Shown here: piece by piece, positions 60,597 through 64,000 of the stretch
How the letters are laid out: each line of letters begins with the position of its first letter
Position numbering within the stretch: the stretch's first letter is position 1
Assembly (NCBI GenBank): GCA_003526375.1
Contig: DPDG01000114.1
Span: 60,818-124,817 of the forward strand
Length of the DNA stretch: 64,000 nt
Source of the DNA: Lentisphaeria bacterium
GTDB taxonomy: Bacteria; Verrucomicrobiota; Lentisphaeria; Victivallales; UBA1829
Direction of reading: 5' to 3'
The notes under the pieces: model-generated
What the model was told of the DNA's origin: nothing
What the model saw: the letters and a program-made list of their open reading frames with translations, nothing else
Database searches by the model: none
Translations under genes and position numbers: made by a program

Positions 60597-60673
60597 GCAC
60601 CCGTAGCTCAGTTGGATAGAGCGTCTGCCTCCGGAGTAGAAGGTCGTGAGTTCAAGTCTCGCCGGGTGCACCA
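60597..60673 (+). tRNA. tRNA-Arg (anticodon CCG), CCA encoded
   Basis: Hand-folded cloverleaf: acceptor GCACCCG/CGGGTGC, D arm GCTC-AGTTGGATA-GAGC, anticodon arm TCTGC-CTCCGGA-GTAGA (anticodon CCG), T arm GTGAG-TTCAAGT-CTCGC, discriminator A, CCA. Confidence 0.93.
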
Positions 60674-60910
60674 TCTTATTTTATTTCTAAGTGCTTATCT
60701 ACAAGCTATTTATAAAGCTTAATAACTTATCGTTTGCCTTTCATTGTTTTTCGATTGTTTTCCATTCTTTTCGAGTGTCAAAATACCGTGAAGGTCTACC
60801 GAACGTCCACCACTTTTTTGAATCTACCCCTCAAGTTACTTTTTTCAAGTATTTTCTTCAGGAATGATCTAATCGCATGTCTCTATCCCTGTAGTTTGGC
60901 AGGAAATGGG

Positions 60911-60997
60911 CTCCTCGGACGCATCACGGACGTTTCTCGGACGCTCCCCGGACGGATAGAAAGCTTGCAATTTGAGGCTCCTCGGACGTTTCGGACG
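60911..60997 (+). repeat. CGGACG direct-repeat array (4 copies at exactly 11-bp spacing plus a CGGACGTTTCGGACG dyad)
   Basis: CGGAC starts at 60916, 60927, 60938, 60949, 60983 and 60992. Both blocks open with CTCCTCGGACG. Confidence 0.9.
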
Positions 60998-61100
60998 CTT
61001 TGTCGCAATTTTTTATATATGCGCAACCTACGCGCACTCGCGCGAGGCTGTGCCCAAAGGAAGGAGATCATACTACCCCCTGCTGTATTCATAAGTCACC

Positions 61101-61147
61101 CCGAACTTTCCGAACTTTTCCGAACTTGTTCCGAACTTCCTCCGAAC
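61101..61147 (+). repeat. CCGAAC(T/A)T direct-repeat array, 5 copies at 9-11-bp spacing
   Basis: CCGAAC starts at 61101, 61110, 61120, 61131 and 61142. Confidence 0.9.
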
Positions 61148-61412
61148 ATGATTAGCCTCAAAAATGGCAAAGTTAGGAGGAAAAGGCTGAAAAAGATGTG
61201 CAGACAAGCTATTCTTATCATTTAAACAGTAACATTACACGGAGGATACCATGAGAGTTGATGCTTTTCTGAATGCATTCGATGCCATTGCCGCGAGTGT
61301 TGGACTTGCGTAGACTCCCCCAGAAGACAGCCCGTTTGCACAGTAAAGGTAGGAAGGCGCTGACTGTCGCGGATATCAGCCATGGCTCCATTTGTCTTAT
61401 CCATGGATTCTT

Positions 61413-61482
61413 GGGACGGTAGTGGGACGGATTTAGGACTGGTAAATAGCAGAGAAATGGGCGTATGGGACGGATGGGACGG
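61413..61482 (+). repeat. GGGACGG direct-repeat array
   Basis: GGGACGG at 61413, 61424, 61467 and 61476, with a degenerate AGGACTGG at 61435. Spacings are 11, 11 and 9 bp. Confidence 0.85.
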
Positions 61483-61542
61483 ATATTTTTGATTTCTTGG
61501 TTTGCATGCGCCTGCGCGCGTGTAAGCGCGCATAAGCTAAGC

Positions 61543-61682
61543 TCGGACATTTCGGACACATATTTTCAAGTCCTTATAAGGGCAGATAGAGACGTTTATT
61601 TTTCTCCGGACATTTCGGACCGTTTTTCAGAACTCTTATATAGACACCTTTTTGCGATTCTATCTCTCCGGACATTTCGGAC
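61543..61682 (+). repeat. Degenerate ~62-64-bp tandem units each carrying CGGACATTTCGGAC
   Basis: Exact 14-mer at 61543, 61607 and 61669. The inter-copy sequences are related (TTTTCA..CTTATA). Confidence 0.9.
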
Positions 61683-61746
61683 ATATATTTACTTACGCGT
61701 GTGGAAAAAAGTATATATTGGACAATGGCAGGGGACATATGTATTT

Positions 61747-61857
61747 TTTTTTGTTCCTGATAAGGAGTTTGAAAAAAGTGTCCGTTTTGTCCATGAGTCC
61801 CCTATTAGCCCTTTTTTGTTCCTAATAAGGAGTTTGAAAAAAGTGTCCGTTTTGTCC
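61747..61857 (+). repeat. Two 46-bp direct repeats (65-bp period) carrying the dyad in inverted orientation
   Basis: TTTTTTGTTCCT(G/A)ATAAGGAGTTTGAAAAAAGTGTCCGTTTTGTCC at 61747-61792 and 61812-61857, with one mismatch. GTCCGTTTTGTCC is the reverse complement of GGACAAAACGGAC. Confidence 0.9.
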
Positions 61858-61901
61858 GTGAACCTCCTGTCATACACCACCGTATCAACTCACTGCATGG
61901 T

Positions 61902-61944
61902 AAAAAAAAGACGGAGGGAAGGCTTGTACTCCTTCGACCTCCGT
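61902..61944 (-). terminator. Rho-independent terminator of the minus-strand DUF932 operon
   Basis: On the minus strand: ACGGAGG-TC-GAAGG-AGTACAAG-CCTTC-CCTCCGT followed by CTTTTTTTT. Confidence 0.75.
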
Positions 61945-62083
61945 AATGCTTTGGACATCCTCATGGCGCATCACTTCATGGGGCGGGTCTTCCGGACAGG
62001 AGGGCACAACAGGAGGCCTCCCACCGGAATCTCTTCACGCAGGGAAGAGTCAGCGGGACCTTATGATTGTTTCGCAAATGATA

Positions 62084-62806
62084 TCAGCTCCAGAGCTCCG
62101 GTCGGTTGCCGTCCAAACCGAAGCAGCGGTTCAGAGCGGCGTAGGAGACGTCCACCCGTTGCGGGGTGTATTTCCTGACCGTCTCCGTGAACGCATTCAA
62201 CAGGCTCCATCGGGTCGGCTCGGCGAACTCCTCGTGCGAGGGATTCTTGAATTCCTTGTACACCGGTACAATATCCGAGCTGTTGATTGCACCGAGTTCT
62301 GCGGCTCTGACGATTCGGCTTCTGGCTTCGTCGTCGTTGTCCAGATACGCCACTTTCAAGTCCTCGCAGACATTCTCCAATATCAGGAACTCGTTTTCGA
62401 GCTCATCGACGGCACGGTTCACCAGATCGCACAGCTCAATCCGCGAGGTGTGGCGACGCTTCAGAACCATGCTCCCGCCGAACGCCATGTTACTGCACAC
62501 CATCACACTGATTCCGGCTGTCAGCCCCACGGAAAAGCTCTTGTCGTGGCTGTTTCTGAGCCCGATACAGCGACACCATTCCAGCGAGGAACTCCTGTTG
62601 ATCTTCATCACGCCGAACAGCTTCGCACCCTCACGTGCCAAGCCGAACTGCTCCTCCAGAATCACCCACTGATGCGCCTGCACCACCTCCGTTACCGCCT
62701 CAATGACCTCATAATGCGGAACCGGTTTCCAGCTCGAAGTCGCCTCCGGCGTCGGAACCAGCGCGATTTCTTCCGTGTGGCGTAGTGACCACCGCCGCCC
62801 ATGCAA
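62084..62806 (-). CDS. DUF932-domain protein (phage/plasmid/ICE-associated)
   Basis: IGLRNSHDKSFSVGLTAGISVMVCSNMAFGG...KRRHT is the DUF932 core as I remember it. Confidence 0.65.
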   Translation of the reverse strand: MHGRRWSLRHTEEIALVPTPEATSSWKPVPHYEVIEAVTEVVQAHQWVILEEQFGLAREGAKLFGVMKINRSSSLEWCRCIGLRNSHDKSFSVGLTAGISVMVCSNMAFGGSMVLKRRHTSRIELCDLVNRAVDELENEFLILENVCEDLKVAYLDNDDEARSRIVRAAELGAINSSDIVPVYKEFKNPSHEEFAEPTRWSLLNAFTETVRKYTPQRVDVSYAALNRCFGLDGNRPELWS

Positions 62807-62821
62807 AGATGACTCATCGTC

Positions 62822-63607
62822 TCACCCCTTCCTCACGTGCCACAAACGGCACTTGTTTTTGTAAGGACAATCCGCGCAGGAAAAACCTGTCTCATTCGGA
62901 TAGAACACCTCCCTCTGCACCGCCGATTCGATTGTCTGCGCCAGCAATTCAAAACGCAGGAAATCCGCCTCATTGCGCTCGGTATAGTGCGACTCCACGC
63001 ATGGCGTTCTGGTCTTCGTCACGATATCGAACCGGAACAGCGGACTCCTGCCGGTCAGTTTTGTACGGGCGTAACAAAAAGCGGTCGCCTGCAAGTCCTG
63101 ATGCGCCTTGCCCGCAGACCACTTCGCGCCTGCCGTTTTCCAATCGACGATATACTCATGACCGCCGTCCTCCACGATCAGATCATACTCCCCGATCAGC
63201 GGCTTCGACAGCCCCGGAATCTCCACGGAAAACCCTTCCTCTACGCTCCTGACCGCAAAGTCATCCTGCCAGTTTTCGAGGCAGACAGTGAGCATGGCAA
63301 ATCCCGTTTGCAGCAGAGACCCGTAATCTTCTTTCGGCTTGTAGACGAGGTGTTCCACGGCATTGGTTTCCGCCTTGAAATACGCCTCGAACAGCTCTTT
63401 TGCATCTGCGATTTTCAGCTGCGGACCGCTCCTTGCACGCTGACTCAACGCCGCATGGAAGGCACGCCCGAACGGGAAGCAGCTGCACGTGTGTTCCGGC
63501 TTTGCATGTTCGAGATACTGGAACTTGAATTTCAGCGGGCATGTCAGGTAGCAGTGGAACGCCGAATACGACCAGTGCGGTTCCTTGCGCAACTCATTCA
63601 GGTTCAT
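62822..63607 (-). CDS. PD-(D/E)XK nuclease, Cas4/RecB-like with Fe-S cysteines
   Basis: N-terminal Cys (YLTCPLKFKF), nuclease core IGEYDLIVEDGGHEYIVDWKT, and C-terminal CADCPYKNKC (CX2CX5C). Confidence 0.8.
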   Translation of the reverse strand: MNLNELRKEPHWSYSAFHCYLTCPLKFKFQYLEHAKPEHTCSCFPFGRAFHAALSQRARSGPQLKIADAKELFEAYFKAETNAVEHLVYKPKEDYGSLLQTGFAMLTVCLENWQDDFAVRSVEEGFSVEIPGLSKPLIGEYDLIVEDGGHEYIVDWKTAGAKWSAGKAHQDLQATAFCYARTKLTGRSPLFRFDIVTKTRTPCVESHYTERNEADFLRFELLAQTIESAVQREVFYPNETGFSCADCPYKNKCRLWHVRKG

Positions 63608-63608
63608 T

Positions 63609-64000
63609 TCACGCCGCCTTTCCGTTGAACTCGTTGATCGCCAGACTGCACTGATTGCGCGACAGCTCCTCTACGGAATTCACCCGGAACCTTGCCGCGA
63701 TCTGCTGAGGCGTGACACGGGCGTCCCTTGCGAGGTCGAGCAGATACTTGATCTGTTTCGGAGACGCGGGACCATCAACATTCTGACTGCCTTTCCCCTT
63801 GCCGTAACTGCCCTTTCCACCGGAATAACTCTGTGACGATTGTGGTATTTGCTGTACAGCCGTACAATTACCGCTATGCAGCTCCGTTTCGACACTGTTT
63901 CGCACAAGATCAAAGGTCTCATGGATGCGGCTCTGAAGCTGTTCCGCCGTCAGACCGTCCGGGATTTCCACCTCAATGGAGGCGTGGTAGCTCTGGCTGG
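63609..64000 (-). CDS. Hypothetical protein, probably 5'-truncated by the right window edge
   Basis: The frame stays open upstream of the GTG at 63971 to the window end. Gly/Lys-rich linker (GGKGSYGKGKGS), then PKQIKYLLDLARDARVTPQQIAARF. The stop abuts the nuclease start. Confidence 0.5.
   Translation of the reverse strand, partial: SQSYHASIEVEIPDGLTAEQLQSRIHETFDLVRNSVETELHSGNCTAVQQIPQSSQSYSGGKGSYGKGKGSQNVDGPASPKQIKYLLDLARDARVTPQQIAARFRVNSVEELSRNQCSLAINEFNGKAA

Follow-up and report, generated by a model that had tools for sequence, protein, structure and literature searches.

A candidate replication origin of opposed CGGAC-type repeats in a tRNA-integrated island of a Lentisphaeria bacterium

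In a 64,000-nucleotide stretch of the genome of a Victivallis-like Lentisphaeria bacterium (the window, whose numbering is used throughout), the 1.2 kb of non-coding DNA between a tRNA-Arg(CCG) gene and a DUF932 operon carries an array of paired CGGAC-type pentamers that switches strand across an AT-rich centre. Judged by its architecture and position, the array may well be a replication origin of the kind known from Staphylococcus aureus pathogenicity islands (SaPIs) and phage-inducible chromosomal islands (PICIs), belonging to an island integrated at the tRNA gene; we put the probability of this reading at roughly 0.57. In the window copy it would be an orphan site, because the initiator-like gene that precedes the array in an intact relative has been lost from this copy.

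Architecture of the array

A previous reading of this DNA, made from the sequence only, had described a periodic array with a dyad motif that flips from one strand to the other, and both direct inspection and repeat-finding tools bear this description out. The array has three parts:

61544 to 61682, + strand: forward units U1-U3, each with one CGGACATTTCGGAC dyad (starting at 61544, 61607 and 61669); the dyads are invariant in all copies.
61683 to 61779, no strand: the centre, 69% AT, with a degenerate forward pair, a T9 run and TGTGGAAAA; its core is conserved in the related contigs L268, L270 and L277.
61780 to 61857, - strand: reverse units U4 and U5, with GGACAAAACGGAC dyads at 61780-61792 and 61845-61857.

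All three forward dyads are exact. The second and third start where the sequence-only reading had placed them, and the first, once its leading C is counted, starts at 61544 and not at 61543. The degenerate pair TGGACA/GGGACA that had been reported at 61719-61736 is present at 61719-61737, with GGAC at 61720 and 61733. The two opposite-strand dyads do lie, as had been noted, within 46-bp repeats that differ at one base, and these repeats are the first part of a longer 57-nt direct repeat with 91% identity; U4 and U5 are a recent 65-bp tandem duplication. Dyads follow one another at start-to-start distances of 63, 62 and 65 bp. Each is a pair of 5-6 bp cores at 9-bp spacing within 13-14 bp, and the recurrence of such 9-bp dyads every 62-65 bp amounts to about six helical turns. 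Units U1 and U2 carry in addition a conserved tail of about 28 nt, which ends in CTTATAAGG or CTTATATAG. Counted as pentamers, the window array contains ten exact CGGAC copies, contributed by five dyads, and two degenerate ones (TGGAC and GGGAC), making 12, compared with 10 in L277. Six to eight of them lie on the + strand left of the centre and four on the - strand right of it (two in L023, L268 and L277).

Such a concentration of the motif is not expected by chance. Allowing at most one mismatch, GGACAWWWCGGAC has six matches in the 64 kb (60984, 61545, 61608 and 61670 on the + strand, 61780 and 61845 on the - strand), all confined to one 900-bp span, whereas shuffled sequences gave a mean of 0.68 matches and none of 100 shuffles reached six. 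The 97-bp centre is AT-enriched relative to the window as a whole (69% versus 48%) and ranks in the top 1.2% among 97-bp windows. Within it, TGTGGAAAA (61700-61708) conforms on the - strand, as TTTTCCACA, to a relaxed DnaA-box consensus and is conserved.

Relatives of the array and the lost genes

The array is present in six related contigs: L270, which represents the window's own locus, L023, L268, L269, L263 and L277. It is accompanied by a different tRNA gene in L263 (tRNA-Gln, in a copy cut by an insertion) and in L277 (tRNA-Arg-ACG). Reverse units number two in the window, L269 and L270, and one in L023, L268 and L277. It had been proposed that the origin interpretation should be abandoned if homologous elements lacked the inversion and the AT-rich centre; the homologous copies keep both. 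When the copies were compared column by column over six contexts (the window, L270, L023, L268, L277 and L263/L269), none of the 56 dyad columns was variable, as against 52 of the 191 other columns (Fisher p = 3.5e-7, a value that is indicative and not exact, since the sequences are related by descent). We take this difference to mean that the dyads are under purifying selection. In the L263 copy (L263:2690-3410, from an uncultured Lentisphaeria genome), the same non-coding region adjoins tRNA-Gln(TTG), and a DUF772 transposase-like insertion breaks the array past its second forward unit; the open reading frame (ORF) called there also has FtsK domains.

The most informative relative is L277. 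In the orientation of the window it runs from the tRNA through the tRNA-proximal arm region, a CGGACG cluster and a CCGAAC cluster to a gene for a 267-aa protein and a gene for a 477-aa protein, and then through a terminator hairpin, U1-U3, the centre, one reverse unit and the DUF932 terminator to the DUF932 gene. The first dyad begins 92 nt past the stop codon of the 477-aa gene, with only the terminator hairpin in between (L277 6759-6790, a perfect hairpin that differs from the palindrome at the corresponding place in the window). The L277 array is flanked by two convergent operons and is separated from the tRNA by about 3 kb. By blastn, the window is 95.6% identical to L277 in the array, 92.9% in the DUF932 region and 86.9% in the tRNA-proximal region.

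A Walker A motif (VAPSGAGKG) is present in the 477-aa protein. The protein matches DUF3987 with an E-value of 1.9e-5 and a score of 24.5 bits, below the Pfam threshold of 27 bits, and PHROG 3022 ("DNA primase") over its NTPase part with an E-value of 2.5e-6. DUF3987 proteins have been described as replicative helicases of superfamily 6 (SF6) that carry a winged helix at the C-terminus, a primase frequently being encoded just ahead of them (PMC4889955), and one of them is biochemically a helicase that works with a primase-polymerase in a tRNA-integrated element (PMC11724360). Profile searches with the 267-aa protein gave no family match.

In the window, both genes are reduced to traces:

61251 to 61291, + strand: about 40 nt from the beginning of the 267-aa gene, with GGAGGA, a strong ribosome site, ahead of them; now part of a 20-codon stub (61251-61313) that shares the N-terminus MRVDAFL with L277.
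61293 to 61425, + strand: remnant of the 477-aa gene (about residues 392-445), a pseudogene; blastn 91% over 98 nt to L277 6968-7065, tblastn 57% over 54 aa.
61504 to 61535, + strand: GC-rich imperfect palindrome, seen in the sequence; its position matches the L277 hairpin and it varies strongly between copies.

The blastn alignment of window 61291..60597 to L277 9136..9827 spans the start of the 267-aa gene (L277 9177), and the match to the 3' part of the 477-aa gene covers window 61293-61390 and is extended by tblastn to 61425. The window copy therefore bears a deletion of about 2 kb that took nearly all of the 267-aa and 477-aa genes. The deletion also accounts for three features of the adjoining DNA: the ORF at 61251 is a gene stub, the palindrome at 61504-61535, standing at the place of the L277 terminator, is probably the former terminator of the helicase-like gene, and a GGGACGG cluster lies in a remnant frame that reads WDG. 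Taken whole, the stretch 61293-61490 derives from the 477-aa helicase-like gene and is frameshifted. Three further GGAC-type clusters lie outside the array first described (60916-60996, 61101-61147 and 61413-61485). The last of them, the GGGACGG cluster, had been a candidate set of binding sites and was reinterpreted as coding remnant, its frame giving WDG repeats.

Put together, the sequence-only suggestion of an origin with opposed iterons is the best-supported reading, given that the homologous copies retain the inversion and the centre and that the L277 array follows a helicase-like gene; the part that has to be toned down is the instability of the centre, which is modest. The following mechanism can be envisaged. 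The array would be the origin of an island of about 10 kb integrated at a tRNA gene, with twelve CGGAC-type iterons, eight forward and four reverse, opposed across the AT-rich middle. Intact islands would encode, immediately upstream, a P-loop helicase-initiator (477 aa, DUF3987-like) together with its 267-aa partner. The C-terminal domain of the initiator would bind the iterons, and the initiator would assemble on both flanks and melt the AT-rich middle, whereupon the excised circle would begin to replicate. For the origin in the window to fire, the initiator would have to come in trans from a sibling island.

Copies lacking the rep genes are represented by the window, L270, L268, L023 and L263, with at least three deletion patterns among them. 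The repeated survival of the array in rep-deleted copies suggests that such islands might be replicated in trans by their siblings. A more far-reaching version of this idea is that rep-less islands are common in human-gut Lentisphaeria, keeping an invariant origin as hitchhikers that intact siblings replicate; that the initiator is a new DUF3987-like helicase reading CGGAC dyads six turns apart; and that related dyad sets at other places in the island couple replication to operon control. We regard this combination as doubtful, if worth stating. The same deletions bear on a simpler possibility, that the repeats have no function and are decaying beside a deleted gene pair, not yet eroded. Adjacent genes are indeed deleted in the window, L270 and L268, with further deletions in L023 and L263, and the reverse units vary in copy number between one and two. 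Yet the dyads are invariant, in contrast to the non-coding DNA around them, where divergence or loss has affected the old terminator as well, and the array outlives at least three independent deletion patterns, so we consider such a relic quite unlikely.

To our knowledge, there is no experimental work on mobile elements in Lentisphaeria or Victivallis. A defined origin with a candidate initiator would be a basis from which replicons and genetic tools for this phylum could be developed. Copies in which rep is deleted and the origin conserved provide a natural test of complementation between sibling islands, in the way that phage satellites depend on helpers, and replication in trans by siblings, if true, would be the more interesting result. 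The design is otherwise familiar. The element family in gut Lentisphaeria has not been studied, and current views are not overturned.

Competing explanations and the rest of the island

Several observations weigh against the origin reading. The spacers between the dyads are themselves 65-67% AT, so that the centre is only slightly richer; it is barely less stable than these spacers, and weaker duplex exists nearby. None of the 15 least stable 60-mers of the window comes from the array, and the weakest duplex of the non-coding tract is at 60672-60731. The switch point had been called very AT-rich and an unwinding-prone segment. AT enrichment is real, and "very" holds in a relative sense only, given the composition of the spacers and the ranking of the 60-mers; in duplex stability the centre stands only a little below the remaining array and is not the least stable segment locally. 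Matches to the relaxed DnaA-box consensus number 16 versus 9.4 expected, which is not significant on its own. The conserved part of each unit is about 42 bp long and extends beyond the pentamers. The intact arrangement of rep genes and array was recovered once, in L277. As for the 477-aa protein, a search of the PDB, SaPI Rep structures included, gave no match with E <= 1 except one unrelated, and no relatives appeared in phage, plasmid and IMG/VR collections. Its winged helix is putative, and its role as a replicative helicase-initiator, based on weak partial matches, is plausible but weakly supported. Two further points of this kind concern promoters. The spacing CGGACA-16 nt-TATAAG resembles the TTGACA-17-GATAAG found before the clamp gene in relatives, and opposed GGGGACTATGGGGA dyads stand around an AT-rich centre upstream of the island operon, the place expected of an operator.

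These two points belong to an alternative in which the array is a cluster of promoters and operators. Each unit would consist of a CGGACA -35 element and a TATAAG-type -10 element, its upstream duplicate half-site bound by an island regulator, and the three rightward and two leftward units, facing one another, would control antisense or read-through transcription between the convergent operons. Face-to-face switch promoters are a feature of P2/186-type phages. The distance from the dyad to a TATAAG, TATTAG or TATCAG box is 15-17 nt in U1, U2, U4 and U5, the same geometry recurs in both arms of L270:735-862, upstream of a 258-aa gene, a CGGACATTTACGTCCG hairpin follows a -10-like box at L270:955-976, and conservation over the whole unit of about 42 bp would be natural for a promoter. 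On the other hand, U3 has no box, and none of the units passes a sigma-70 scan, a failure explained by -10 elements that lack the final T. The array moreover lies between the terminators of convergent operons, where only antisense RNA is left to transcribe, in a region with no conserved ORF or Rfam RNA, and a tandem triplication of such a promoter has no evident purpose. We therefore think a promoter cluster unlikely. Small ORFs within the array were rejected, as reading frames differ between copies, and an Rfam scan of the region returned the tRNA as its sole match, with no other non-coding RNA.

The site upstream of the operon is of interest in itself. In L270:735-976, just past the window in the same island, and in L278:8598-8840, a perfect 16-bp inverted repeat (GTGGGGACTATGGGGA / TCCCCATAGTCCCCAC) stands ahead of the gene, 258/260 aa, with which the clamp-nuclease-DUF932 operon opens. 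Its arms are 9-bp GGGAC dyads, and the AT-rich DNA between them, about 90 bp long, has an inverted repeat of its own. Beyond the 16-bp repeat, a hairpin, GGCGGACATTTACGTCCGCC, follows a TGGCATAAT box. Being similar in design to the array, this structure could be an operator or a second origin-like site. A perfect hairpin GCAAGCCTTTATTATAAATAAAGGCTTGC is followed by a (CTTG)n microsatellite (L270:1-55; L278:7830-7912). The contigs of the window's locus break at this repeat, and the far end of the island was therefore not reached.

The integration of the island is documented by L023, in which the beginning of a tyrosine integrase gene, a tRNA-Arg 3' half, the same repeat region and the DUF932 gene are joined. 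Identity to the tRNA begins in the anticodon loop and there is no 5' half, as expected of either an excised circle or a tandem copy; the island thus probably excises. From this junction it follows that the non-coding tract belongs to a tRNA-integrating island with a recombination core at 60625-60673. On both sides of the tRNA-derived core of the L023 junction, AAGGTCTACC(A/G)AA occurs (window 60790-60850; L023:530-800), a candidate integrase arm site, and a promoter-like TTGAAA-16-TAGATT on the - strand (60848-60821) is directed across the core to the integrase gene of the circular form. Relatives of this integrase are fragments in unrelated places.

The junction bears directly on a second suggestion of the sequence-only reading, that the opposed dyads are arm sites of a recombination complex, which here would be an integrase/excisionase complex. 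Arm and Xis sites typically take the form of direct repeats at helical spacing, and the L023 integrase has an N-terminal arm-binding-like segment and a SAM-like domain. However, the core lies 870-1180 bp from the array; in L277 the 267-aa and 477-aa genes, about 3 kb, separate the array from the tRNA end, and the AAGGTCTACC copies directly flanking the core are better candidates. On account of the distance between array and core, we exclude arm sites for practical purposes and rate them as extremely improbable; the suggestion found no support. A second att site or accreted element was rejected for want of a second copy of the tRNA 3' end. Rejected, too, was a non-autonomous transposon (miniature inverted-repeat transposable element, MITE), since the window has a single copy and just one related locus turned up among 185,579 species genomes.

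An architectural role in the excised element was also considered, in which the array would serve as a centromere-like partition site or a pac-type packaging site occupied cooperatively, along one helix face, by a small DNA-binding protein. The helical phasing of the dyads suits such a role (9-bp dyads at 62-65 bp, about six turns), as does the occurrence of the half-site in direct and inverted arrangements across the island, and unrelated phage contigs have 9-bp GTCCG arrays near methylase, HNH and terminase genes. These phage arrays are not homologous to that of the window, and none of the island copies yielded a ParA/ParB-type, ParR-type or terminase gene, which makes a partition or packaging site very unlikely.

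Arrays of similar appearance also occur elsewhere. Scans of metagenome and IMG/VR sequences for GGACANNNCGGAC-gap-GGACANNNCGGAC yielded, among the matches listed and after filtering, L023 as a true homologue, and many unrelated arrays. Intergenic arrays of the 9-mer GTCCGWWWT were seen in unrelated phage contigs from IMG/VR and metagenomes (L120:9919-10030, L160, L231, L162, L184 and L252), commonly flanked by DNA methylase genes on one side and by tRNA, HNH or terminase genes on the other, with no common neighbour family. The idea of a widespread class of GGAC arrays tied to one gene family was dropped, no Pfam family being dominant beside 17 phage arrays. A eukaryote-like AT-rich contig (L097, L111) has inverted subterminal GGACATTTCGGAC-type repeats 1.5 kb apart and is transposon-like; the likeness of L097 to the motif is chance convergence. 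IMG/VR searches with three more DNA patterns, and with the DUF932 and 477-aa proteins, gave nothing useful, and blastn of 60674-64000 against phage and plasmid collections found no matches.

The wider setting of the array in the window is as follows:

60597 to 60673, + strand: tRNA-Arg(CCG), identified by ARAGORN and the Rfam tRNA model; the 3' portion of the gene (about 60625-60673) is the island's attachment core.
60674 to 60915, no strand: tRNA-proximal arm (attL side), with AAGGTCTACCGAA and two CACTTTTTTSAA copies; conserved in L023, L263 and L277 beside three different tRNAs.
60916 to 60996, + strand: four CGGACG copies at an 11-bp period and a dyad, GGACGTTTCGGAC; present in L023, L268 and L277, absent from L263.
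61101 to 61147, + strand: five CCGAAC copies at a 9-11-bp period (TRF: period 11, 4.6 copies), with the ATG of the lost 267-aa gene about 100-150 bp farther downstream.
61902 to 61943, - strand: intrinsic terminator of the DUF932 operon, a hairpin and T8; the same hairpin is in L004.
62084 to 64000, - strand: 3' end of the island operon, with DUF932 (62084-62806), a PD-(D/E)XK nuclease (62822-63607) and a 148/168-aa protein (from 63609), by Pfam and PHROG.

Left of the tRNA-Arg gene are ordinary chromosomal genes (enolase, an AraC regulator, a GFO/IDH/MocA oxidoreductase), and right of it come 1.2 kb with no credible ORFs. The AAGGTCTACCGAA and CACTTTTTTSAA motifs of the tRNA-proximal arm are candidate integrase arm sites or a candidate outward promoter. 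The CCGAAC cluster has a counterpart in L277 (9270-9325), ahead of the intact 267-aa gene, and together with the CGGACG cluster, which may also be a control region ahead of the lost operon, it may represent sites for autoregulation by the initiator or a further group of iterons belonging to the 267-aa/477-aa operon. The gene of a DnaN-like clamp homologue lies just past the end of the window, and the synteny of the operon holds in L001, L270 and L277. Database relatives of the DUF932 and clamp-like proteins number more than 1000 each, mainly on short gut-metagenome contigs.

Many sibling islands share the operon (clamp, 148-aa protein, nuclease and DUF932) and lack the array: L004-L012, L271-L275 and L280. 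They diverge directly past the DUF932 terminator; in L004, homology stops right after its T-run and the sequences differ beyond. L280 is a complete island of 10.4 kb that ends in a YagK/YfjJ Rep, HTH_17, a 433-aa protein and an integrase. In L271, L272 and L280 the YagK/YfjJ Rep stands beside 11-bp CTTATAGCTT repeats, and no GGAC array is present; in L271:8350-8440, about seven CTTATAGCTT repeats with an 11-bp period lie between a YagK/YfjJ (RepSA/G2P-like) initiator gene and an AlpA-like gene. These siblings carry a different replication module on a common clamp-nuclease-DUF932 backbone. A rolling-circle origin of this type, recognisable by repeats beside such a rep gene, was considered for the array and rejected, as the recovered parts of the array-bearing islands contain no YagK/YfjJ-type rep gene.

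Comparison with known replication and recombination systems

With the arm sites of lambda attP the array shares short opposed repeats on two sides of a central segment, whereas the crossover core here lies elsewhere, in the 3' half of the tRNA gene, separated from the array by up to 3 kb and two genes. Theta plasmids such as RK2, F and pPS10 have 17-22 bp iterons, usually contiguous and in one orientation, that are recognised by a Rep_3/RepA winged-helix initiator, which is not a helicase. Direct repeats of initiator sites beside an AT-rich unwinding element and a possible DnaA box are common to both, but an oriV of the iteron-plasmid type was rejected because the cores here are 5-6 bp long within 13-14-bp dyads and the island proteins scanned include no match to Rep_3/RepA.

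Satellite phage P4 provides another parallel. It integrates at a tRNA gene and has iteron clusters, ori and crr, on both sides of its alpha primase-helicase, crr consisting of long direct repeats with iterons in each. In the island, too, clusters stand on both sides of an operon, CGGACG/CCGAAC upstream and the array downstream, next to a tRNA. The island differs in iteron sequence, it would have the primase-like and helicase-like functions in separate genes, and sid, psu, delta and cos are not seen in it.

The closest resemblance is to SaPIs and PICIs. SaPI Rep is a helicase that loads itself and recognises penta- or hexanucleotide iterons through a winged helix at its C-terminus; the origin comprises 6-12 iterons immediately downstream of the rep ORF, with an AT-rich region near its centre and at least two iterons, in opposite directions, on each side (PMC9371898). 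The island differs from these elements in several ways. Its host is a member of Lentisphaeria, no packaging genes or helper phage are known for the island, the window copy lacks rep, and its 9-bp dyads are set in conserved units of about 42 bp every 62-65 bp, whereas SaPI hexamers are closely packed. Since the candidate initiator resembles DUF3987 (SF6) proteins and shows no recognisable sequence similarity to the solved SaPI Rep structures, we propose a likeness of design and claim no kinship by descent. That likeness extends to most elements of the plan: the number of pentamers lies within the SaPI range (12 in the window, 10 in L277); the array follows directly 3' of the putative rep gene in L277 (92 nt), the window having a gene remnant at this place; at least two opposed iterons stand on either side of a centre that is AT-rich relative to the window (69% versus 48%) and slightly above its spacers; and the whole is part of a small island, integrated at a tRNA att site and probably able to excise.

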